DNA of 64,000 nucleotides from a virus: positions 1 through 64,000 of the IMG/VR virus record IMGVR_UViG_3300045789_000711; one strand, 5' to 3'. Of the stretch, positions 3,001 through 46,031 are shown one piece after another. Below the pieces are notes generated by a model, which saw only the letters and a program-made list of their open reading frames with translations, was not told the origin of the DNA and made no database searches. How positions within the stretch are numbered: the first letter of the stretch is position 1; the number at the start of each line of letters is the position of its first letter. Both the position numbers and the translations under genes were made by a program.

Positions 3001-6000
3001 CGTCCACGATGTCGGGAATAGCAACGGTTTCAGACACGTCTTTAGCGGTCTTAAGGTTTACATGGCGGTGAAATAAGCTGCGCAAGCCGGATAGGTTTTT
3101 AAAGCCCACTAGCGCGGTTTTCATTTCTACTTCGCCCGATAGCTTCTGCACTGGCATTTCATCGGTTTCACCAAATACCCGCACAAAGTCGTCAACGTCA
3201 ACAATGCCTAACTGGCTCCACTGATCCGGTGTCATGACGTGAGATAGCATGTTAAAGATATCGGTCGGACTGTTTACGGTTGGTGTTGCTGATAGCAGCA
3301 CAACGCCACGGCCCCCGTTTTTCTCTTTAATCAATTGGCCTTTTAACGATAGGTCAACCGACACTTGAGCGCTGGCCTGTGTTGGCAGGTAAGCCAGTTT
3401 TGATGCTTCACGTCCCGCTTTGTAGCTGTTCCGGTAGTTATGGCCCTCGTCGATGATCACATTATCAAAGCCCATATCTTCAAAGTACGGCACGTCTTCG
3501 GCTTTCTTCGTTCCGGTATCGGCATATTTCTCTTTGAACTTGGCATTTTTAAGTGACTCGCGGTGCTTCTTAGCGTCAGCAACGTACTTACCGCCAAGCA
3601 TGCCAGCGTCAACCATTTTAGAAACGAACTCACCCACTGATTCAGGGCGCATAGGTATCGATGCGTACTGCTCTTTGGTCATAACAACCGTAGTGAAGTT
3701 TGAATGCGGGATCATGTTCAGTCGCGTTTTCACTTCTTTGCTTGAAAGCGCCTTAATTTTATCGCGTTGCATTGGTTGGTTAGTGTTGCGGTTTAGCTTC
3801 ACTTCGCCTTTTTCGTCAAGCACTGTTTCTTGCTCAACTTCGCCACCTTTTCCGATCACCGGTTCTACGCCAATAAATAAAATATTGCTCATGTTTTGGC
3901 GACCAAAAAACGCTTTGGACTCGTGATACCAGTTATCAATAACCGACTTAGGAACAACCAGTGCGGTACGACGTGCGCGGCCCAATTCAGTGTTATAAGC
4001 AATTAAACCTAAAGCCGTTGCTGTTTTACCTAGTCCGGTACCAAAACCGCAAATACCGCCGCCTGTTTCGCTTAAACGTCGGATTTCAGAGCATTGATAA
4101 TCAAAGTTAACGATTTCACCGGATGTGTTCTCAAGGCCAAGTGGTGCGCCTGAGTGTTCAATAGGGATAAAGCCATTAAACTTATCGTTATACAGGTTGG
4201 TGATTGGGTCGATGTCGTCGTGTTGACGGATCCAAATACCAAACTCGGCTTCTAGGTCTTTGATCCGGCTTTTGTAGGCCGATGCTGCTGCAGCGTCAGA
4301 GCTGCGCACGGGTAAGCCATTGAGGTAGTTTTCAATCTGGCGCTCAAACTGCTCATTTGTGCTGCTGCGCTTTTTGCCGTCACGTAATTGGTAGCCAGAA
4401 AATAGACCGTCATCGCCGTTGTATTCCTTATTATCAAATTGATTGCCTAATTCGTCCTCTTCAACGCGTGAGTATTCAAGCGATGAATAGCCGTTAGACT
4501 TTAAAAACTCAAGCACATAATTTCGTGGTACCCACTTTGCCGACATAGTGATGTCGATAGCGTCAACGTTCGTTCGCGTTCGTTTGCGTTCGATAGCGTC
4601 TAGCTGGGCTTGGTAGTTTTCCAAGATAGGTTTACTGGTTTCGTTGGCCATGGCAGCAAGTAAGCGCTCGCGGCCTGCAACGATGTTACCGCTAGTTGCA
4701 CGGTCAAGAGGGGCAAGCATGCCGTCAGGGGTGATAGCGATACCCTCAATGGCGGCTAGCTGTTCAAGTGTTTCAAGTGTTCCCGTGTAAACCTGCAAGA
4801 AGTCTTCAAGCGGTACGGGTACCAAGTCACGCACTGAAAACAAGTTAGCGACTGTTTGGGTTGCATCTTGTGGATCAAACGCAATGGTTTCACCTTTAAC
4901 GACTTCACCCTTTAGCAGTGCTGAGAACTCGCCATTTTTATCAAGTGATGCAGAAAAAGCATTCCAGTAATTAGCGTTGCGGCCAGTGAGTACAGTGAGT
5001 GATTTATTGTTGGCTGGGGTGCCATACTTTTGAGACTCGGCCAAGATAAGCGCACGGGCCTCGGCTAAAATCGTTTCGTCCGGCTCATCGCTATACTGCA
5101 GTGCTTGGATGCGCATACCAATGATAGAGCCACGGATCACTTGAGCCTTGTACTTATCATCAACGGTATTCGATAGCTTAATGAAATCACTGAGTAGCCC
5201 ACGGGTTAGGTAAGGGTAGTCGGTGTTGATGGCCATAAGCTGATCGTAAGACAGAGCTAAGGCACCTAGCGGGTTAGAAAGCATGCTATCAAGTGCGCCT
5301 AAGCTCGATGCACCGTAACGTTCAGCATTGATAGTGCCGTCGTCGTTTTCACGCTTAATCAGTTCCCAGTTACCGTTTACTAGTGACATCCAGCGGCCGT
5401 TAATCAGCTTTTCGTCACCCTCTGCATAAGTGATTGGTAGCGGTTCGGCTGCGTTCAGGCTGTCCCATTCGATGCGGGTTTCAAACTTGTGCGATAGCTT
5501 TTCTTTAAGTTGTAAGTTCGTTAGTGCGTTATTGTTGTTAACGACGAGCTTATTTTGAAAGCTTAAGCGTTCAGACTCGCCATGAACAAAGCGCTTGCCC
5601 TCGGCTACATCGAACCACTTACCACTAATGAACGTATCCCAAAGCACGTTAGCCGCTTTCAAATCAGCGTCTTTAAGTTTGGGTAGCTTCTGGGCCAAAT
5701 CGTCCGAGTGTTTACGCAAAAAGATAACGTCAGTCACAACGTCGGTACCGGAATCACTAAACACGCCTGATGGTAGTCGATGAGCGCCTAAGAACTCGGC
5801 TTTACGACTGATGAGGCGGCGCATTTTCTTGTTGTCTTTACCGCTTACAATGCGAGTAGGTACCACTAGGCCAATAAGGCCACCAGCTTTAACCTTATCA
5901 ATGACGCGCACGACAAAGTAATCAGCGATGTTAGTAAACTCTTTTGATGCTGGGTCAGAGTCCAATACAGCGGTTTCACCTCGGGCGGTACCAAATGGCA

Positions 6001-16592: not shown

Positions 16593-16603
16593 ACATCCTA
16601 ACA
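16593..16603 (+). promoter_or_regulatory. Putative C1 operator
   Basis: ACATCCTAACA. Confidence 0.75.
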
Positions 16604-16679
16604 CTTTTTAATTGTGTTACTTTAAAAAGGGTGTCAAAATCTGTCAGTGTTATTTTTGGCAGTGTAAAGGATCGGGTAT

Positions 16680-17063
16680 ATGTCATTTAGTAAGAGTATT
16701 TTTGACCAAGAAAAAATGGTTAAGTTTGTCGATTTTAAAAAGTTCGTTGAGTACGGGGTAAAGGGCGCTGCTGGGCTTTACGGTGTTGATCTGGACTTTA
16801 ACGCTAATATCTTAATAGAACCCATAGCAGGCGATTCTGTGTCAGTTAATATCTTGAAAAAGATGCTTTCTATAGGGCTATTGGTAGAGACGACTATCAC
16901 AAGCAAGGCTAACCCTTTGTTTAAGGCGGTTGCTTATATCGTGGTCACTCATAAGGGCATAGAGATTGAGCTTGGTGGCTTTGGTACGGATAGAGCGCCA
17001 CTGAATGATGCTACGTTCTCGCTATTTATGTTTAACGCGTTACTGAGTGAGGTAGCAGCATAA
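16680..17063 (+). CDS. Hypothetical protein
   Basis: 127-aa ORF with AAGGA RBS. Confidence 0.65.
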   Translation: MSFSKSIFDQEKMVKFVDFKKFVEYGVKGAAGLYGVDLDFNANILIEPIAGDSVSVNILKKMLSIGLLVETTITSKANPLFKAVAYIVVTHKGIEIELGGFGTDRAPLNDATFSLFMFNALLSEVAA

Positions 17064-21214: not shown

Positions 21215-22270
21215 TTAAACCTTTTGAGTATGTAGTAGTTTGCGAACGCCGCGAACGATGGCCATTTCTGGCTGTTCCGGTATGTCGATAGTGTGGAACC
21301 AAGCTTGTGCGTGTTCTTGTAGCCAGTTAGCGCCGCCGCCAACAAACACTATGCGGGTTAACGTGCTTAGGTTTGAGTCTGTTAGCTTCATCATATCGCT
21401 GTAAACAAGGTCAGCAAGGTATTGAGCGGCCTCGTTAACCAAGTCTGACACGTCTATACGCGCCTTTACGGCACTTTCTTTGTTACTGGTAGATCCAATA
21501 TAGCCTAAATCGATAATGATTCGCAGATCTGAGTTTGAGAGCGCCTTGGTTGCGCCTAGGCCCAGTCTGTCAGCATTGCGATTAAGTAGCGTCTTGAAGT
21601 GTTCAAACATCTTGTGTACGCCGTTCTCACTCGTTGCGTAGTCGATAACTTCAAAGCCGCGACCAATAATCGCTAAATCATTTGAGAACTGGCCAAGGTC
21701 AATCACCAGCGTCTTAATGTCGTGTTCGTATTCTTCGTTAAATGAGCCGTTATCATCAATGGCCACGTAGACGTAAGCGGGTATGGCTTCTGGGAATACT
21801 AATATCTTATTAAGTATCGGCGCTGCAGTGGTGCCGTTGTAGCTGGTCACTGGTGAGTTAAGTGAAGCTTTCTTCTTTTCGATAAGGTCGGTATTGATTG
21901 GTGACTGACTATCGCCTTTGTTGTAGTAGTGGCTTGTCGGTACCGTGCAACCAATAATGATTTGTTGGCCATCAAGTCCGGCGTTGGCCAGTGTGTTGTT
22001 TACCAGTACGCGGTTAGCTTCTGATACTTGGTATTCACGGTAGCAAGTATCTTCTGGGTTAGATGATGCGTGTCGAACCGTATAAGCGTTGCCGCTTTCA
22101 CATACCCAAGCTGAATCGCTGATACCTGATAAGTCCATTAGTGCGCCTTTTTCGATGATAGACGGGTTATGGCCCTCGATAAGTGTGCCGTCTGGATCCA
22201 AAAATGAGTAAGCAATGTTTCCGGATCCATCATCAATTGCGACTAAAGGTATAAAATTTTCGTTGTTCAT
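21215..22270 (-). CDS. parM: Actin-like plasmid segregation ATPase ParM/StbA
   Basis: AIDDGSGN, FPEAIPA, VIDLGQFSND, FVGGGA. Confidence 0.9.
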   Translation of the reverse strand: MNNENFIPLVAIDDGSGNIAYSFLDPDGTLIEGHNPSIIEKGALMDLSGISDSAWVCESGNAYTVRHASSNPEDTCYREYQVSEANRVLVNNTLANAGLDGQQIIIGCTVPTSHYYNKGDSQSPINTDLIEKKKASLNSPVTSYNGTTAAPILNKILVFPEAIPAYVYVAIDDNGSFNEEYEHDIKTLVIDLGQFSNDLAIIGRGFEVIDYATSENGVHKMFEHFKTLLNRNADRLGLGATKALSNSDLRIIIDLGYIGSTSNKESAVKARIDVSDLVNEAAQYLADLVYSDMMKLTDSNLSTLTRIVFVGGGANWLQEHAQAWFHTIDIPEQPEMAIVRGVRKLLHTQKV

Positions 22271-22396
22271 ATATAAATCCCCGATTATTAATAAATGCCA
22301 AAAAGCGCGTATAAGTTACCATAAACACCCTAACAATAAACCATAAATACGCTAGTTTTGTGCGTATTTGTTCTGTTTAGCTGTTATTTGATCAGT

Positions 22397-22552: not shown

Positions 22553-22563
22553 TGTTAGGATGT
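22553..22563 (-). promoter_or_regulatory. Putative C1 operator before pacA
   Basis: TGTTAGGATGT, downstream of a TACGAT -10. Confidence 0.75.
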
Positions 22564-22564
22564 A

Positions 22565-23917
22565 GTGGATCGGGTAAGAGCAAACAAGATGTCTAGCAGT
22601 TCAAAAGATTCTATTGATATTGACTGGTGTACGCACCGAGAAGACTTTGTGGTTAACCATGCCCCAAGTGGTACCAGTGCAAGAAAGTATCTATCGGAAC
22701 AAGGGCTTAACATCAATACAGGCCGTAAGCAGTTTGCAGCTATCGCCAAGCTTGAGGGTGATGGCTTGTCTTATGATGCCATTCGTAAAGCGCTATTTAG
22801 CAAGGCACCAGTCAAGGTTAAAAGTGGATCCAAGAGTGGATCTAAAAGTGGATCCAAGAGTGGATCTAAAAGTGGATCCAAGAGTGGATCCATAAAAGTG
22901 GATCCACCCGCTAGTAAGAATGCTAGATCCAAAACAACAAAGAAAAAACCCATAAAAAACAAAGATGTTACCGAGGGGAAAACAGAGCGAACACCCGTCA
23001 CGGAAAAGAAAAAAACCAAAACAACGAAACGGTTAACAAGTTCGTTACAACAAGTGTTCATTGACCGTTCGAGTGATATGCAAGCTGTGAATAGTGGCCG
23101 CTTCGCTGCAGGTAACACGGCGGCGGTTAAGACGGGTGCTTATATGAACTTGGTTCACGCACAAAGTGACATCGTTGAAACGGTATTGAATTGCCGTCTA
23201 GGTGATGTATCGGGCCTCGTTAAGCTTTCGGAAATTCGTTACATCCAAATGGAACGCTTGCTTGTTGATAGGTTGGTCACTATTGAGCAACGCGCGCTTG
23301 AGGGTAACTTACCGCGTGACCACAACAACGAAGTCATTAGTAAGGAGGATTTGGTTAGAGAGGCCTATTGGGGGTCGTCTTCTGTCTTAACGGGTTTGCT
23401 TGGCACGTTGACGATGGCCCATACCCAAGCCAGTAAAGCCGAAGTTGATAATGAAATCAAAATGGGCCGCTACTTAAAGGAAAAAGCAGATCGCGAGTTC
23501 CTTATCAGTTTATCCCAAGAGCGTGAAGCCAATGAAGATATGACCGCGCTAGAAATGGCGAGGCGCATTGAGGCTTATGGCTTGTCGCCATCCCCAATAA
23601 TTACAGCCGAAGCGCTGAAAGAAATCGAATTGATGCGTCCTAAAGTCGATACGTCCGGCATTAGTGAAGAAGAGCTTGATGCCAAAGTTGAAAGCTACAT
23701 GCAAAAAGTTAAAACCGATGTTGATGCTATGTCTTCGCGTCGTGGAATATTGGAAGAGCTTATGCTGCAGAGTAAGGCTGAACTTGAGGCTGGCGGCTTA
23801 GACGAAGAGGATTTCCAAAGTACAGCGTATTCCGGTTTGGAATATGACGAGAGTGAAGATGTTGAGTTTAGCGGGATAGATAGCGACGACATCGATAACG
23901 ACGAGTGGAGTGATTAA
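22565..23917 (+). CDS. pacA: Terminase small subunit (P1 PacA-like)
   Basis: IDW..HR..F N-terminus, GRFAAGNTAAVKTGAY, acidic tail; directly upstream of pacB. Confidence 0.85.
   Translation: MDRVRANKMSSSSKDSIDIDWCTHREDFVVNHAPSGTSARKYLSEQGLNINTGRKQFAAIAKLEGDGLSYDAIRKALFSKAPVKVKSGSKSGSKSGSKSGSKSGSKSGSIKVDPPASKNARSKTTKKKPIKNKDVTEGKTERTPVTEKKKTKTTKRLTSSLQQVFIDRSSDMQAVNSGRFAAGNTAAVKTGAYMNLVHAQSDIVETVLNCRLGDVSGLVKLSEIRYIQMERLLVDRLVTIEQRALEGNLPRDHNNEVISKEDLVREAYWGSSSVLTGLLGTLTMAHTQASKAEVDNEIKMGRYLKEKADREFLISLSQEREANEDMTALEMARRIEAYGLSPSPIITAEALKEIELMRPKVDTSGISEEELDAKVESYMQKVKTDVDAMSSRRGILEELMLQSKAELEAGGLDEEDFQSTAYSGLEYDESEDVEFSGIDSDDIDNDEWSD
22820..22930 (+). repeat. Putative pac site: 12-bp periodic AGTGGATC repeats
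   Basis: GATC at 22827, 22839, 22851, 22863, 22875, 22887, 22901 and 22926 inside 5' pacA. Confidence 0.75.
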
Positions 23918-27284: not shown

Positions 27285-27688
27285 TATCGTAATTGATCCG
27301 GTTAAGTTGATGATTCGCGCCTAAGCGCCCTCTAGCATTTGTTCCCCTAAAAAGGTGGTAATTGAAATTTGCGCTGACATCCTAACAGTATTTATTTTAA
27401 ATAAAAGCGCCAAAAAACCATCTACCAATAAATAATTATTCCTTGGTGAATATAGTTTTACCTCTTAATAGTCAGGTAAACCAACTCTATGCGCTTGTAA
27501 CCCGCTATTCGTCTGGACTAATACTAAATGATGTCTTTTTTTTGACGCGCCAATTAACTGATTAAGTATCGTTTTCGTTACTTTGTTAGGATAAATAAAT
27601 CTTGCTTACTTACCGTTTCGAGAGTATTTTTCCTTTTCCAGCATGAGGCTGGCACTTTTGGCAGAGTGAAATTAGGAGTAATCGGGTA

Positions 27689-28312
27689 ATGAATGAGTTA
27701 GAAATGAGGGTATATCGTGATGGTGACGATATGCGTTATGTGTATGGTCAGTTAGTCGCAAAGGCTCGGCATAGAGAGGCTAGGATCGTGCAATTGGGTT
27801 GCAACGTGTCACTAAAGCCCAAAGAGTTAATATCGCTTAAATTTAGTCAGTTTGTTGTTAATTCCAGTGGAATGCGTTTTATTCGTGATGAATCGGCATT
27901 GCATCATATCGAAGTGGTTAATCGTGCCGCTTTGGAAGCCTACGACATTCGTCGTCGGACTCACCCCCGCAGTGAGTACCTATTTGAGAACGAGCGCATT
28001 TCATCGCGTGGTAACGTGCCAGTGAGCCGTCAGGTTGTCTCTTATGTATTCCGCTCAACTAATTGTAAGATTTTGTCAGGTGAAATGATGTCACTCGAAT
28101 TGCTTCGTAAAGTGTGGGCGCGTCGCTACCTTGTTAACGGTGGCAATATCCCTTTTCTACGGGAACGCTTCAATCAAGCGTCAAATGCGGCTACTGTTGA
28201 GTATTTAGGTCTGGTAGGGGTTGAGGGTGTCGATATGAAGCGCCACCAGCCAGAAGACGAACAACGTGTTTTATTATCAGTATCACCGCTTTACTTGAAC
28301 GAGGAATTTTAA
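27689..28312 (+). CDS. Tyrosine-recombinase-fold protein with degenerate active site
   Basis: LKPKELISLK (R->K), EYLF, VSRQVV, ELLRKVWA (HxxR->ExxR), FNQAS...T.EYL; operators at 27377 and 27584. Confidence 0.7.
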   Translation: MNELEMRVYRDGDDMRYVYGQLVAKARHREARIVQLGCNVSLKPKELISLKFSQFVVNSSGMRFIRDESALHHIEVVNRAALEAYDIRRRTHPRSEYLFENERISSRGNVPVSRQVVSYVFRSTNCKILSGEMMSLELLRKVWARRYLVNGGNIPFLRERFNQASNAATVEYLGLVGVEGVDMKRHQPEDEQRVLLSVSPLYLNEEF

Positions 28313-38706: not shown

Positions 38707-38940
38707 ATGCAAATCAACTTACATGAAGCAAAAGCAAAATTGTCGGCGCTGGTCGAAATGAGTGTCGAGGGTGAAGAGGTGATCATCGCCAAGGCGGGAA
38801 AGCCACTTGCTCGATTGGTTCGTTATGAGAAAGTGCAGCAACCAAGAACGCTTGGCATATTGGCAGGCAAGATAATCATTCCTGACAACTTCAATGATGA
38901 AGACCAAGACATTAACGATATGTTCTACGGGGCCAAATAA
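38707..38940 (+). CDS. Phd/YefM family antitoxin
   Basis: INLHEAKAKLSALVE...GEEVIIAKAGKPLARLV. Confidence 0.92.
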   Translation: MQINLHEAKAKLSALVEMSVEGEEVIIAKAGKPLARLVRYEKVQQPRTLGILAGKIIIPDNFNDEDQDINDMFYGAK

Positions 38941-39326
38941 TGAGACGTATTTTACTCGATACCCATGCATTTTTATGGGCGCTTTCTGATGATGAGAGCC
39001 TAGGTGATGTTGCGGCAAGTATCATTATTAACCCTGATAATCAGGTGTTTGTCAGTGCCGTTAGTATCTGGGAAGCTGGAATAAAAGTTAAACTAAACAA
39101 GCTGGTAGCGCCTGACAACCTTGATGAAGCTATCCAGCTATTAGGCTGCAAAGAGCTACCTATAAGTGCGTTCCATGGCAAGCAAGCTGCCAAGTTGCCA
39201 ATGCACCACGCGGATCCGTTTGACCGCCTGTTGATTGCTCAAGCTCAAGCTGAGGGGTTGGAGTTAATGACGTGTGATAGCGTGTTTCCCCTGTACGGGA
39301 TACAGCTCATTGATGCCAAGCGATAG
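38940..39326 (+). CDS. vapC: VapC PIN-domain toxin
   Basis: LLDTHAFLW, SIWE, HHADPFDRLLIAQA. Confidence 0.92.
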   Translation: MRRILLDTHAFLWALSDDESLGDVAASIIINPDNQVFVSAVSIWEAGIKVKLNKLVAPDNLDEAIQLLGCKELPISAFHGKQAAKLPMHHADPFDRLLIAQAQAEGLELMTCDSVFPLYGIQLIDAKR

Positions 39327-39448
39327 GGCCGTATTAAGTTCCGCTTGTGAGCTATCCTATTAAGGTGTAGTATTATTTCACAGTATCATAAAATGATACG
39401 GTGAAATGTGGCAGTTTTCGTATTATCTCGGGTGAGATTTAACATTAG

Positions 39449-40339
39449 ATGGAGTTTGCAATGGTTGATAAACGTATTCAGTTCAGGGGTGTGTGTTGTG
39501 CTTGTGGCCGTGTTCATGCACTTAAGGGCGATATGATGGTGCAGCACGGTTATACCGTTGACTACGGGATGTTTAACGGCAGTTGCCAAGGCGTTGGCCA
39601 TCCCCATTATGGCCATGTTGACGCGCCTAAATACCTTAAGCAATTGATTGAAGAGAGCCATGATTTATTGGCTAGATTGCCTGCAATGATAGCGTGTTGC
39701 CGTGATGATTTGGCTCGCGCCGAAGCTGCCTATGAAAAAGCCAAGGCGATAAGCCGCACTGAGGGCCGTCAAGCGCTAGAGGCTCGCAATAATCTTAAAA
39801 ATCAACTTAAGGCGTGTATGTATGCCCTTAATGGTGGCGTAAAAGCTTCTATTGATATGTATGAAAAAATGCATAAAGAATGGGTTCAGGTTGAGCCGAT
39901 GGAAGTTGATTTAGTGGTTGAAGCTGCAGAGCAACGCGCCGCGCGTAAAGCGCTTGCCGATGCTAAGAAGCAGGCCAAAGCCGACGAGCAAGCCGCCAAG
40001 AAACGAGTTGCGGAAGAGCGTGAAGCCAAGGCTAATGAAAAGTTGGCCGCGCGCATGGCTGAGTTAGCGGCAGGGGCTTATTGTCGCCTGTATTATCGCG
40101 GTAAGTTGGTCAAAGAGTTTAAGCAATCTTTCGAGGATGAGCGCTCATTACTCAATGCTTATCACAGTACCCGCCAAGAGCATTACCTGACTATTTTCCC
40201 TGACACTAGCGAGCTGAATTGGAACTTAGGTAGTTACTTTTTTGAAGCTAGAGATAAGCCTGATGGTAAGGGTAAGCGCCTAGAGCATTATCTTCTTGGC
40301 GGCACCCCAAAGAGTTATTTCGAGGTTGATTGGGATTAA
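39449..40339 (+). CDS. Hypothetical protein with N-terminal C/H zinc motif and coiled coil
   Basis: RGVCCACGR.H......HGY......GSC.G; promoter TTGTGA-17-TAGTAT at 39345. Confidence 0.75.
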   Translation: MEFAMVDKRIQFRGVCCACGRVHALKGDMMVQHGYTVDYGMFNGSCQGVGHPHYGHVDAPKYLKQLIEESHDLLARLPAMIACCRDDLARAEAAYEKAKAISRTEGRQALEARNNLKNQLKACMYALNGGVKASIDMYEKMHKEWVQVEPMEVDLVVEAAEQRAARKALADAKKQAKADEQAAKKRVAEEREAKANEKLAARMAELAAGAYCRLYYRGKLVKEFKQSFEDERSLLNAYHSTRQEHYLTIFPDTSELNWNLGSYFFEARDKPDGKGKRLEHYLLGGTPKSYFEVDWD

Positions 40340-42053: not shown

Positions 42054-42093
42054 CCAAAACAACTATTGGCAGTAGTTTGATTAACCGGAGGGC

Positions 42094-42717
42094 TTGATGG
42101 CCTGTGTTAGAAGTATGCCGCCTCAGACGAAAGAGGCCTGCAGAAAGATACTTTCAGAAGTAGATAAGATTAATCCTGTTATCGCGCTCATGCTTGAGTT
42201 CTCGGCGTTAACAGGGCTTAGGTATAGCGACGTATCCCGTTTGAAGTTTACGGACTTGATGGTCAATGGTGTGATCCGCGACTCGATAGTTGTTATCCAA
42301 GTAAAGGCGTTCAATAAGCGTATAGCTGCAGGCATTAAAGCTGCAGTGGCCAAAGACCGCTCTAAGGTGACAATCTTTATTAACGAGCAGTGTAAGGCCG
42401 TGATAGAGGATGCATTGAGACTGGCCAATGATGATGCCAAGAAGCTAGCATTTGAGTCGTCCATTCGTGCTGGTATGCCGTACTCGGCCCAGTACGTTAA
42501 CCGGATACTTAAGGTTGTGGCTGTGAAGCTAAAACTTAACTTTGCATTGTCTACACATAGCTTTAGAAAGGCGTTCGCGCTCTTCTTGATCAACAACAAT
42601 GCTCGCATACATCAAGTGCGTGATGCGCTTGGTCAATCGTCGCTTTCATCTACTGATGCCTACCTACAAACCTTTATGTCAGATCATGAAGCGTTAGTGT
42701 CAAAAGTTGGCTTTTAG
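42094..42717 (+). CDS. Tyrosine recombinase (catalytic-domain only)
   Basis: TGLRYSD, STHSFRK, LGQSS..ST..Y. Confidence 0.88.
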   Translation: MMACVRSMPPQTKEACRKILSEVDKINPVIALMLEFSALTGLRYSDVSRLKFTDLMVNGVIRDSIVVIQVKAFNKRIAAGIKAAVAKDRSKVTIFINEQCKAVIEDALRLANDDAKKLAFESSIRAGMPYSAQYVNRILKVVAVKLKLNFALSTHSFRKAFALFLINNNARIHQVRDALGQSSLSSTDAYLQTFMSDHEALVSKVGF

Positions 42718-42870: not shown

Positions 42871-43563
42871 TTGACATTGAATAAAGAGCTAAAGCCAGTG
42901 TATGAGAATGGGTTGTGGCGCATTGATAACGAGTTTATAAAAGCTGATAGGCTTGAATCGCTTAAAGAGCTTAATGAAGCTATCAGGCACATAGAAGCTA
43001 AAACGCTTGCAGCCAATAACGCTATCGCTGGTGGCCTTTATGCTGCAGATATAATGCTTAGGTTGCCTGAGTATCGATTACCCCGCTTAAATTTGTATTC
43101 CCGTAACGGCCTAATTACCCCAGAACGCGCGTGGAAGATAGCCCGTGATACATGGATTAATCTTGATAAGGTTTACCCGTATCGTGACGGCTGGTTAGCT
43201 TTCTTTGCTGCCATGATGCCGACTCGTGATCTCTTCATGACGCCAAAAGAGTTAGAACACTTGGCCATGCTTCCTGATGAAATCAAAATATACCGTGGCT
43301 ATGACCGTGCGCTAAGTCGTGCAGGCATTAGCTGGTCAATGAGTAAGATGATTGCGTCACAGTATGCAAAGCGTTTTAAGTCTAAGAAGCTGGCCCAAGG
43401 CTTAGTTAAGAAAGCTGATGTCGTGGGTTACATTACGGCCCGTGGCCATCATGAGATAGTGTTGCGTTCGGAATTGGCAGTATTAAATCAACGGGCAGTG
43501 AATACCGTTCGCGGTGATGAGGCTATGCGCTGGTTAATGCTTGGTGATGGTCAGTTCTTATAG
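42871..43563 (+). CDS. Hypothetical protein with ADP-ribosyltransferase-like C-terminal domain
   Basis: IYRG ... GISWS...IA..YA ... HHEIVL. Confidence 0.55.
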   Translation: MTLNKELKPVYENGLWRIDNEFIKADRLESLKELNEAIRHIEAKTLAANNAIAGGLYAADIMLRLPEYRLPRLNLYSRNGLITPERAWKIARDTWINLDKVYPYRDGWLAFFAAMMPTRDLFMTPKELEHLAMLPDEIKIYRGYDRALSRAGISWSMSKMIASQYAKRFKSKKLAQGLVKKADVVGYITARGHHEIVLRSELAVLNQRAVNTVRGDEAMRWLMLGDGQFL

Positions 43564-43587
43564 TTCGACGCCCTACCCCAGAAAGAA

Positions 43588-43659
43588 CAAAAGCCCTCTA
43601 CGAATAGAGGGCTTTTGCATTTTTGGCAGTAGTCGCGGATCGGGTAATCCTTGATTACG
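43588..43659 (-). ncRNA. Putative ~75-nt small RNA
   Basis: Promoter TGGACA-17-TAATCT (43694-43666), 5' hairpin GTAATC-AAG-GATTAC, single-stranded linker, terminator 43588-43617; no ORF. Confidence 0.5.
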
Positions 43660-43703
43660 GGAAGAAGATTAAACAAAAGCGTGGTTGCTGTCCAGTTCAG
43701 GAC

Positions 43704-43740
43704 AAAAAAAAGCCCAAACCAAAATAAAGCGGTCTGGGCT
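43704..43740 (-). terminator. Minus-strand terminator
   Basis: AGCCCAGACC..GGTTTGGGCT-T7. Confidence 0.65.
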
Positions 43741-43876
43741 ACCTGTAGTCAGTTTCTAAGGGACAGAGAAGAAACAGGGCTACCTAATACAACACAACTA
43801 ATCGACGTTAATATCCTAACAATTTGATCTTAAGAAAGCTAGATAGCTACCATTTAGTTTTTTTAAGGGCTTCGTT

Positions 43877-44488
43877 ATGAGTGATACGCGCATTATCGCG
43901 GTGAGCCTTGCTGTTAAGGCTACGCCGCTTGTTGCTATGGCAACGGCCACCAGCAACGCTTTACATATTATTTCAATTGAAAAGCTACCTCGCAACGTCG
44001 CAAAAATTAAAGAGCGATTAGCAGAGCTTAAGGCTAAAGCTTCCGAGGTCGGTGCTGAGTTGGTGATTGAGGATCAATCGGGCCTGCTTTCCGGTTTTGG
44101 TCGGCCGCTTCGATTAGATGGTAAGGGTATCAACGGGCAACCTGTTTTAGTTGAAGCAATGGAGCGCTACAACGCATTAACCAATGTTGGTGCCATAACG
44201 TACCCAGAGCAAAACAAATCCAGCATGACGCTATCTAGAAGCCTTTATAACATCAAGCATTCTGATGGTGGCTCGGTGTCATACGTTATCGACTGGGAAC
44301 AACTGCGCGACGAGCAACGAGTGATGCTTATCTGCTTGCATGCCGCCTTATGCCAGAGCGTATTCAATACCGGATTTATTGACCAGATGTTTGCTCATGC
44401 TGCCCCAGTGCGCCTGCTTGAGTCGGACGATAGCAAGCCTAACCCAAGAGTTAATCTTGGTAATGGCGGCAAGGTGGTACTGCTATGA
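43877..44488 (+). CDS. mat: Maturation control protein (P1 Mat-like)
   Basis: MERYNAL and YVIDWEQLRDEQ resemble remembered P1 Mat segments; operator ATATCCTAACA at 43811. Confidence 0.7.
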   Translation: MSDTRIIAVSLAVKATPLVAMATATSNALHIISIEKLPRNVAKIKERLAELKAKASEVGAELVIEDQSGLLSGFGRPLRLDGKGINGQPVLVEAMERYNALTNVGAITYPEQNKSSMTLSRSLYNIKHSDGGSVSYVIDWEQLRDEQRVMLICLHAALCQSVFNTGFIDQMFAHAAPVRLLESDDSKPNPRVNLGNGGKVVLL

Positions 44489-44814
44489 CGGATTCTGCTG
44501 TGACATCCCGCCTATCGGATGAAAAGATTGAAGATGTGATCATTCGTTCATACCTGTATCGAGACATCCTTAAGTCCATTCGTGAAAACTCGGTAACAAC
44601 GACTGCTTATGAGCTTAAGCACGATGAAAAGTACCGTCCTGACTTGGTTGCGTTCCGCGTCTATGGCAATACGGCCGCTCGCTGGTTGGTTAAGTTGCTA
44701 TGCGATACCGAAGACGAAGAACGTGCGCTACCCGTCGGTACCACAATCCGGTTCCCTGACATTGCCTACGTTCGTGAGCGCATTCGCCACTTTGAAAATG
44801 GCGGTGGTATCTAA
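44485..44814 (+). CDS. Baseplate protein, LysM-like (P1 gp26-like)
   Basis: DEKYRPDLVAFRVYG....WLV, LPVG..I.FP. Confidence 0.8.
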   Translation: MTDSAVTSRLSDEKIEDVIIRSYLYRDILKSIRENSVTTTAYELKHDEKYRPDLVAFRVYGNTAARWLVKLLCDTEDEERALPVGTTIRFPDIAYVRERIRHFENGGGI

Positions 44815-46031
44815 TGCCAGTCAGAAAAGCCAAGAAAAACGAGCAGGGGATATATGACACAAAAGGGCTTAATGAAGCTCAATTCATCATGGCCTTTAAT
44901 CGGATCAAGGTTGAGCAGAATGAAAAGCGTCGAGAGGGTAAACGAACGCTTAAGCCTAGAGCATTAACAAGGCGAACAACACAAGACATAGCCCGTCTTG
45001 GTAATAAGGCCGATGGCACCCCCTTTACCGTTGACGACCTTAAACGCTTTGAAAAGATGTCTAAACGCTTTTCTAAGCGTCGTGGTACCTCGCAAGGCAT
45101 TACTTACCTAGAGGTTATTTCTCGTGGCCGTGCTATCGACGTTAAGCGCGCAAACAATAACGTCTCTGATGGCTCGGGGATTTCAAAAGCTTCATTGATT
45201 GCGCTTAGGGGCGGCAATGTGGCCCATGTACGCGTTAAAGCATCGTCTAAGTCTAAACACCAAGAACACATGGTAAGAGTGCGCTTTGAAGAGTGGGACG
45301 ACTCTATGCGCAATGCTGGTGGCCATGGCAAAGATAATGACGATGGCTTTATGGCGGCGGTTAAGGCTTCGTGTCGTGGCCGTATGTCCTTTGATTGTGA
45401 TTGCGGCCGTTACCAGTATTGGTATCGATACTTGGCCACGCTTGGCAATTACCAGTTATCACCCCCTAAAGAGTTCGCTTACACCAAGATACGTAACCCT
45501 AATTTGGTCGGTGTTGCCTGTAAGCACGTCACCAAAGCGCTAACCATGCTGCAAAGTCCGACTTGGCATAAACCCTTGTCGCTACAAATGCGCTTACAAG
45601 CGACACGTAACGGCTATGGCGATGATTACCGCAAGAACACCTATTTCAGCAAAGAAGAGCAAAAGGCCGCGAATAAAAACCGCAAGCTGACCGTCAATCA
45701 AGACAAAGCCCGTGAAGACTATAAGCGCTATATCTCACGACTTGGTGCTATTCAGCGAAAGCTAAAAGAAAACCCAGAGGCTAACAAGGCGATCCGTGAG
45801 CAGCTTAAACAGGTCAAGTCTGACCGTTCCAAATTGGCTAAAGAAAACACCCAGCTCAAGAAGCGTAACGCCCAGTTAGAGCAGATGGCCCGTGACGCTA
45901 TGCGAGTAAAGCTGAGTTCATTTATTGATGGTGCCAAGGTGGCAGGCTTAAGCGAGAGCAAGGCCGTTGACGCCTTTGCCAAGGCTAACAAGCTTACCCC
46001 CGAAGCGATTAAAAATCTAAGAGGTAAGTAA
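44814..46031 (+). CDS. P1 gp25-like protein with SWIM-type zinc finger
   Basis: FDCDCGRYQYWYRY ... ACKH; size and synteny. Confidence 0.75.
   Translation: MPVRKAKKNEQGIYDTKGLNEAQFIMAFNRIKVEQNEKRREGKRTLKPRALTRRTTQDIARLGNKADGTPFTVDDLKRFEKMSKRFSKRRGTSQGITYLEVISRGRAIDVKRANNNVSDGSGISKASLIALRGGNVAHVRVKASSKSKHQEHMVRVRFEEWDDSMRNAGGHGKDNDDGFMAAVKASCRGRMSFDCDCGRYQYWYRYLATLGNYQLSPPKEFAYTKIRNPNLVGVACKHVTKALTMLQSPTWHKPLSLQMRLQATRNGYGDDYRKNTYFSKEEQKAANKNRKLTVNQDKAREDYKRYISRLGAIQRKLKENPEANKAIREQLKQVKSDRSKLAKENTQLKKRNAQLEQMARDAMRVKLSSFIDGAKVAGLSESKAVDAFAKANKLTPEAIKNLRGK

Follow-up and report, generated by a model that had tools for sequence, protein, structure and literature searches.

The present analysis examines a 313-bp intergenic gap in the window (the whole stretch of DNA analysed, that is, the first 64 kb of the 80,932-bp virus record IMGVR_UViG_3300045789_000711) and the candidate small RNA unit on its minus strand. 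The gap separates a 230-amino-acid gene of the + strand (42871-43563), which had no Pfam match and fell in phrog_4776, a family of unknown function, from a homologue of P1 Mat (43877-44488; 21-30% identity across 22 phage records in a protein search), after which come baseplate and tail genes. By its proteins the genome is a distant P1-type plasmid prophage; nucleotide searches of phage and plasmid collections with the locus returned no relatives, and the sequencing runs that hold the candidate locus are ice and food metagenomes. The 5' part of the candidate RNA is complementary in two blocks to a leader motif, to a degree above chance and over the start regions of other genes in the genome, and this motif is conserved in a relative. 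What reads the motif is a separate question, to which several answers of graded probability may be given.

Anatomy of the candidate minus-strand unit

On the minus strand the unit begins with weak promoter-like hexamers, TGGACA-17-TAATCT (43666-43694, with TGGACA at 43694-43689 and TAATCT at 43671-43666), continues with a 5' domain (43619-43658) made of a small hairpin and single-stranded UGCCAAAAAU, and ends in an intrinsic terminator (43580-43618) in which a 14-pair stem (43618-43587) is followed by TCTTTCTGGG, as identified by a terminator scan of both strands. The hexamers, the linker (ACTACTGCCAAAAAT, minus strand, 43633-43619) and the hairpin terminator all lie where a previous reading of the DNA, made from the sequence only, had placed them. 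The 5' hairpin described in that sequence-only reading was recovered in part: there is a small hairpin, and UGCCAAAAAU is free, being unpaired in both the minimum-energy and the centroid folds, but the minimum-energy stem of the 5' domain is GGAUU-ACCC-GAUCC (-7.4 kcal/mol, z -2.55, with 1 of 200 shuffles as good) and not GUAAUC/GAUUAC. The complete 79-nt unit folds at -29.2 kcal/mol (z -5.87). Read on the + strand, the 5' domain is the fullest copy of the leader motif discussed below, which we term the master copy, and it is directly 5' of the terminator in the minus orientation only, a placement that supports an RNA. Because the + strand copy starts inside the U-tract of the terminator upstream of it, it cannot be an ordinary 5' leader there.

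A second terminator (43704-43740, minus strand only, 11 pairs and T8) lies upstream and would insulate the unit. Among the stronger minus-strand hairpins between 40 and 60 kb (at least 8 pairs, at least 4 of them G-C), which were 43618-43587, 43740-43711 and 50467-50448, the one at 43740-43711 was alone in having no + strand terminator at the same hairpin, and the list of open reading frames (ORFs) contained no minus-strand gene upstream of this 43740-43704 terminator. The unit had been described as free of ORFs, and our searches agree with this, since neither a 58-amino-acid ORF on the + strand nor a 41-amino-acid ORF on the minus strand had a PHROG match or was present in the protein collection; the former has a TTG start directly after the master copy and runs through the terminator hairpin. 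The candidate, as is characteristic of trans-encoded base-pairing small RNAs, is non-coding, ends at an intrinsic terminator and has an accessible seed whose complementarity to start regions goes beyond chance. This anatomy, with the seed directly 5' of a strong terminator and a separate minus-only terminator upstream, fits what would be expected of a small RNA gene. No ACATCCTAAC box, the putative operator described below, was found overlapping the promoter of the candidate.

Some further features of the gap may be recorded. With 28-nt arms of 75% complementarity (43573-43632), a longer, imperfect form of the terminator hairpin is possible; should minus-strand transcription continue beyond the U-tract, a downstream GGGGUAG would pair with the seed CUACUGCC and could mask it. 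Inside the start of mat, in the same direction as the minus-only terminator at 43704-43740, are promoter-like hexamers TTGCGA-17-AATAAT with a TG (43967-43995), and a transcript running from these to that terminator could be ~250 nt long and antisense to the start of mat and its operator; the weaker TTAACG-16-TATTAG at 43811-43784 would give an RNA of ~74 nt ending at the same terminator.

A two-block leader motif at start codons

The motif, written on the sense strand, is (T)TTTGGCAG(T), a spacer of 2 to 17 nt, and (GG)ATCGGGTA(A). In the master copy (+ strand, 43619-43650) block A is ATTTTTGGCAGTAGT (43619-43633), the spacer is CGC and block B is GGATCGGGTAATCC (43637-43650). All genic copies are in the sense orientation and within ~40 nt of a start codon, so that an asymmetric sense motif stands beside the start codons of a subset of genes, the arrangement that defines start-associated sequences. 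Judged from the sequence, the seed proposed earlier is one copy of this conserved leader motif and only half of a larger element. The four seed matches that had been listed are nonetheless exact, at 16652-16663 (12 nt), 42066-42076 (11 nt), 27656-27664 (9 nt) and, on the minus strand, 22304-22296 (9 nt).

The best target leader precedes gene 16680-17063, which belonged to no Pfam and no PHROG family and for which an Atlas search gave no usable lead. There the motif (16652-16678, + strand) consists of ATTTTTGGCAGT, 5 nt and GGATCGGGTA, ending 1 nt before the ATG; it shares 22 identical positions with the master copy over the two blocks, and its predicted duplex of -37.8 to -39.3 kcal/mol is the best non-self match in the whole genome. 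In the leader of gene 27689-28312 (27652-27690, + strand), whose match to the integrase family is weak (PF00589, E 1.4e-4, under the Pfam cut-off), block A is GCAcTTTTGGCAG with core TTTTGGCAG, followed by ATCGGGTAAT running into the ATG. A target newly found here is the leader of a terminase-like gene with its ATG at 22589 (phrog_1711 terminase, E 1.3e-10), where GTAGT is joined directly to GGATCGGGTAA (22562-22577, + strand). The leader of the small tyrosine recombinase gene 42094-42717 (Pfam PF00589, E 1.9e-15) carries TTGGCAGTAGT, with CTTGAT over the start codon (42066-42099, + strand). In all four of these top targets the predicted duplexes span both the Shine-Dalgarno sequence and the start codon, and in two of them the match extends outside the shared motif core (TAGT in 42094, and the GTAGT joined to block B in 22589).

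Weaker members of the set are the minus-strand leader of parM (gene 21215-22270, a ParM-type partition protein, phrog_691), with TTTTTGGCA, 10 nt and ATCGGG (22280-22304) and a weak match to the master copy; the leader of gene 39449-40339, with TGGCAGT, 12 nt and TCGGGTGA (39409-39435, + strand; duplex -28.1 kcal/mol); and a site at genome position 79366 reading TTGGCAG-GT-ATCGGG. Just upstream of 39449 is a PIN-domain (VapC-like) gene (38940-39326; PF01850, E 5.4e-18), and tandem TTGGCA pairs occur at 38852-38866 (+) and 39207-39187 (-).

Departure from chance was assessed over 112 start-region windows (4.0% of the two strands together). In gapped similarity to the master copy, 16680 scored 35, 27689 30.5, 22589 29 and 42094 28, compared with maxima of 24, 24 and 21.5 for the reversed, complemented and reverse-complemented controls. 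A shuffled background had been suggested earlier as a check on the start regions, and these four targets exceeded it in gapped similarity: none of 300 shuffles and none of 299 natural 42-mers attained their scores at ranks 1-4. Exact matches of at least 9 nt, counted genome-wide, fell in start-region windows in 6 of 19 cases (7 of 19 if 22589 starts at its ATG). The hexamer ATCGGG was in such windows in 7 of its 27 genomic copies and TTGGCAG in 5 of 16, a count that included the doubtful window of the 58-amino-acid ORF on the master copy itself. TTGGCA followed within 25 nt by ATCGGG occurred at five places in the window, given 61 TTGGCA and 18 ATCGGG sites, where ~0.2 would be expected, and four of the five were leaders or the master copy. 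As a negative control, a neighbouring putative minus-strand RNA (43780-43741) was matched in complementarity by 92 of 100 shuffles.

Similarity was confined to the motif: the flanks on both sides were within shuffled nulls at 7 of 7 targets, so that a duplicated gene is not the source of the match. None of six leaders folded more stably than its shuffles (z -1.3 to +1.2), and a conserved target hairpin was sought among these folds and rejected. Two promoter interpretations of the motif were likewise discarded, one as a sigma-54 promoter, for which the spacing from TGGCA to the -12 element is wrong, and one with block A at the transcription start, for which the distance from operator and -10 varies from ~20 to 53 nt.

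Conservation in a related contig

Relatives were sought through the Mat alignment and through the tail protein 44814-46031 (below 60% identity in 860 plasmid records by protein search, with 46.6% the best) in viral, genome and metagenome collections. Mat homologues of 50-58% identity (P0002-P0006) were also seen. The search for related DNA gave a single record, an IMG/VR contig (G001) of 63,728 bp, estimated to be 64% complete and syntenic with the genome studied here (G000), with nucleotide identity of 66-74% in long aligned gene stretches and 65-84% over all aligned stretches. In three of the four orthologous leaders of this contig (parM, 16680-type and 27689-type) blocks A and B are kept as islands, and they accompany the operator and the -35/-10 elements in leaders that have otherwise diverged. 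Since motif islands are kept in diverged leaders, the leader motif is under selection. Block B reads TCGGGTGAA, not ATCGGGTAA, in two of the three motif leaders, and the leader of the active recombinase in the relative is without block A (TTGGCA). Searched against viral contigs, the strict two-block pattern gave no matches; a loose version returned more than 115 single chance hits and was set aside as uninformative.

The ACATCCTAAC box is common to both phages and may be a putative C1-type operator. It occurs in five exact copies in G001 (13 with at most one mismatch), where the control gave 0 and 2, and in 10 exact copies in G000 (18 with at most one mismatch). The box is upstream of most motif-bearing genes (spanning 12014-43821 in the window, with a further copy at genome position 79316): it lies at 16593 before 16680, at 79316 before 79366, and at 22563 and 22325 between parM and the terminase-like gene; a variant, GTTAGGATAA, precedes 27689. 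A -35-like hexamer, TTGTTA, shares bases with the box at several of these sites.

Rearrangement may have shaped the relative at two places. Positions 13-131 of its contig recur in inverted orientation, with 99% identity, as the final 119 bases. One arm of this 119-bp repeat closely precedes the small tyrosine recombinase gene, and the second comes directly after the 27689-type leader motif; between the arms falls the stretch that the relative lacks (~27.7-42.1 kb of G000), and no counterpart of the repeat was found in G000. The segment may be invertible, or at the least could not be resolved by assembly. At a second locus (L001), between the homologue of the 230-amino-acid gene and mat, which is the place of the candidate RNA in G000, a 46-nt inverted repeat (96%; 2359-2404 and 3412-3457) flanks 1007 bp with two small ORFs, and this looks like a mobile or invertible cassette.

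What may read the motif

The interpretation that we favour, tentatively and with somewhat less than even confidence, is that the gap encodes a minus-strand RNA of ~79 nt (~43658 to 43580), ending at the strong terminator, whose single-stranded UGCCAAAAAU would pair with leaders and block their translation. The 5' part of this RNA would pair in two blocks with the leader motif on the Shine-Dalgarno sequence and start codon, through a single-stranded block A' and through a block B' made of the hairpin loop ACCC and its 3' side. Proposed targets are 16680, which would be the first gene of an operator-controlled operon, both integrase-family genes and the terminase-like gene, with parM, 39449 and 79366 as weaker ones. 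We infer that the RNA is produced, that it pairs with these leaders and that the direction of the effect is repression in trans, pairing blocking the binding of ribosomes. It might in this way mop up leaky expression of genes that are operator-controlled or otherwise hazardous. Because the candidate promoter is without a ACATCCTAAC operator, the RNA would be expressed in the plasmid state and would add a further layer of silencing to that of a C1-like repressor. The two unlike blocks with their spacing of 2-17 nt suit an RNA duplex with an internal loop. The multi-target riboregulator envisaged by the sequence-only reading gains from the complementarity of start regions beyond chance and from a second block over the Shine-Dalgarno sequence and start codon; parM, its partition target, turned out to be the weakest match.

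Several observations weigh against an RNA. The promoter has the hexamers and spacer claimed for it, but it scores 8 of 12 against the sigma-70 consensus, which may not be that of the host, and so falls under the scan threshold of 9 of 12. The terminator is a 14-pair hairpin as claimed; it is, however, bidirectional and also ends the + strand gene 42871-43563, which fully explains its presence, and the U-tract of the + strand terminator is supplied by the run of T in block A of the master copy. None of the 17 listed runs that hold the candidate locus is on record as RNA. Covariation had been proposed as a check and gave no support: comparison with four public DNA runs (X3, X6, X8 and X11, parts being uncovered in X6, X8 and X11) yielded copies so nearly identical that there is no covariation, the sole difference inside the unit being 43662 A>C (+ strand) in three of the four (X3, X6 and X11), 4 nt downstream of the -10-like hexamer. 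The relative, which keeps the motif, has ~2 kb of other small genes (at least five small ORFs) at the syntenic place of the candidate, and no independent locus complementary to the three motif leaders was found in its 63.7 kb, estimated to be 64% of the genome. The ten best-ranked loci there were the leaders' own antisense strands, the next best lay inside a 747-amino-acid ORF, and another was, to judge by synteny, probably in the tape-measure gene.

Some of the statistical evidence is also less favourable than the gapped scores. Individually, parM (20) and 79366 (19.5) are not above background in gapped similarity. Exact 9-mers were found in 4 of 112 windows, a modest excess over the shuffle mean of 0.83, and a count of four or more was obtained with four of the 500 shuffles and with 17 of the 498 natural 42-mers. 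Duplex energies against the 112 start regions were -39.3, -34.9, -30.5, -28.1 and -27.2 kcal/mol, and among 250 shuffles none reached the third or the fifth value, whereas two reached the best; the reversed control gave -30.6, -29.9 and -29.5 kcal/mol, so that only the top two targets are clear of it. Pairing of the C-rich block with G-rich ribosome-binding sites in general inflates this test, and since the reversed control reveals this bias in energy we relied on gapped similarity instead. The UUGGC sequence, said to sit in a hairpin loop at two targets, does so in minimum-energy folds at 27656 (loop UGGC) but not at 42066. Finally, summed pairwise scores were 199.5 for the master copy and 195 and 190 for two of the targets; the targets are as alike mutually as they are to the master copy, which makes a start-associated sequence read by a protein or the ribosome a serious rival. 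The sense-strand motif could, in other words, be read by something other than RNA.

That rival, in which a cis-acting start-associated sequence is read by a phage or host protein or by the ribosome and 43619-43650 is a stray or decoy copy with no antisense RNA, is doubtful in our view and yet has a substantial claim to be correct. It accounts for the sense orientation of every genic copy within ~40 nt of a start codon, for the conservation of the blocks in leaders of the relative with no master copy in its available DNA, and for target-target similarity that equals target-master similarity. Block B moreover overlaps a G-rich ribosome-binding site in three of five leaders (parM GGGGA, 79366 GGGGGTG and G001 GGGTGA). 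Unlike blocks separated by 2-17 nt would however be awkward for one rigid binding protein, two targets match the master copy outside the shared cores, and a stray copy on the + strand would be transcribed only by read-through of the terminator. No candidate RNA-binding protein turned up, although none was searched for. There is a precedent for such a sequence in the Cluster K mycobacteriophages, for which PMC3203893 describes a 13-bp start-associated sequence (SAS) 3-7 bp before start codons, with an extended element (ESAS) upstream of it at variable spacing; in four of these phages a single SAS copy is in the opposite orientation and not at a gene start, and the authors there leave the partner as "RNA or protein" and the function as unknown (PMC3203893). 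The motif reported here resembles SAS in being asymmetric, of one orientation, placed before the starts of a subset of genes and accompanied by an upstream second element at variable spacing. SAS is found on a subset of non-structural genes and is conserved in related phages on different gene families (PMC3203893), and the present motif is similarly conserved, at orthologous genes (three of four leaders in the relative), with one odd copy off gene starts. The sequences themselves are not shared, SAS being GGGATAGGAGCCC with a canonical AGGAG core and the motif here TTTGGCAG...ATCGGGTA; SAS reaches up to 19 or more copies per genome compared with 5-8 here, the host phylum differs, and ESAS is an inverted repeat whereas blocks A and B are not (PMC3203893 for SAS). 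The odd copy in the present genome is directly 5' of an opposite-strand terminator, which suggests that the partner is an RNA. Under both the RNA interpretation and a protein or ribosome partner the motif would act on mRNA, being strictly sense and on the ribosome-binding site.

It is improbable that the copies descend from one leader cassette that recombination carried from gene boundary to gene boundary, each decaying in its own way, with the master copy as the least decayed of them, left after gene loss between the 230-amino-acid gene and mat, and with no dedicated trans factor. The copies do keep different sub-segments of one ~32-nt sequence, the interval between the 230-amino-acid gene and mat is variable (313 bp in G000 compared with ~2 kb in the relative), and the 58-amino-acid ORF with its TTG start directly follows the master copy. 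But that ORF has no family or record and crosses the terminator hairpin, there is no similarity in either flank at any of the seven targets, and neutral relics would not persist as islands at 66-74% gene identity.

In P1, loxP adjoins cre. It is very improbable that the TTGGCAG elements here are DNA sites, whether cores used by the two integrase-family recombinases or operators to which a regulator binds. In favour of such sites, TTGGCAG(T/A)(A/G)(G/T) does lie ~25-30 nt before the start codon of both integrase-family genes, and at 42066 a 7-nt core is flanked by an imperfect inverted repeat. Against them, the sites share no arm to which a recombinase could bind, their flanking arms being short and unlike one another; between five and seven scattered sites in the same sense would lead to deletions; the elements are strictly in sense orientation and near the ribosome-binding site; the active recombinase leader of the relative has no TTGGCA; and Blast found no repeats between the two recombinase regions.

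If the partner is an RNA as we favour, its closest analogue would be C4. The C4 RNA has two short complementary blocks, one of them over the icd ribosome-binding site; it is encoded in the immI operon, and the icd/ant genes under its repression lie downstream of it. According to PMC8198154, which also gives the content of the immI operon, C4 of P1/P7 is a small phage RNA that acts by trans base pairing to a leader, with repression layered on C1. The candidate is like C4 in belonging to a P1-type plasmid prophage and in its proposed trans pairing with leaders above a C1-like repressor (PMC8198154). C4 is cut from the same operon transcript as its target, whereas the candidate would be standalone with several proposed targets, and it does not occupy a C4-type operon position, lying between the 230-amino-acid gene and mat with its best target, 16680, 27 kb away. 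The Rfam check that had been suggested was negative, with no family reaching its gathering score in G000, inside or outside the window, or in the relative; C4 was also absent from the 18 hits with E of at most 10 in a search of 43450-43950, where Atu_C4 is an unrelated Rhizobiales family. With neither the model match nor the operon position of C4, the candidate is not a member of the C4 family. Since no Rfam family, C4 included, was present in either genome, a C4-type role would here be unfilled by a known RNA.

DicF is a prophage-encoded base-pairing small RNA with multiple targets. IsrK, too, is a prophage-encoded base-pairing small RNA, according to PMC4825925. The candidate as predicted is like both in being a short prophage RNA with its own terminator that would pair with several start regions. 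RNAs of this class act mainly on host mRNAs or on one phage gene and through a single seed, whereas the targets predicted for the candidate are all the phage's own genes, with a common two-block leader. To our knowledge no trans-acting RNA regulator besides C4 is established in P1-type phage-plasmids, and a literature search found none. 

The data describe a two-block leader motif that is real and conserved, with an antisense copy that is suggestively placed, and hence a well-founded, unproven candidate for a riboregulator. A wider proposal, which we regard as unlikely though worth stating, is that both recombinase genes of the phage, its terminase gene, an early operon and its partition gene form a regulon marked by a common two-block leader tag, that a master antisense RNA recognizes this tag and represses the regulon on top of the control exerted through the C1 operators, and that start-associated sequences are RNA docking sites. 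P1-type phage-plasmids are widespread carriers of accessory genes. Even if there is no RNA, the two-block leader motif would be a new and testable cis-regulatory element in this phage lineage. If the RNA interpretation is true, one small RNA would tag and silence a dangerous set of genes (terminase, recombinases and early operon) in the plasmid state; antisense immunity RNAs would then be linked with the unexplained conserved sequences at phage gene starts, and there would be a first mechanistic answer to the purpose of phage start-associated sequences.

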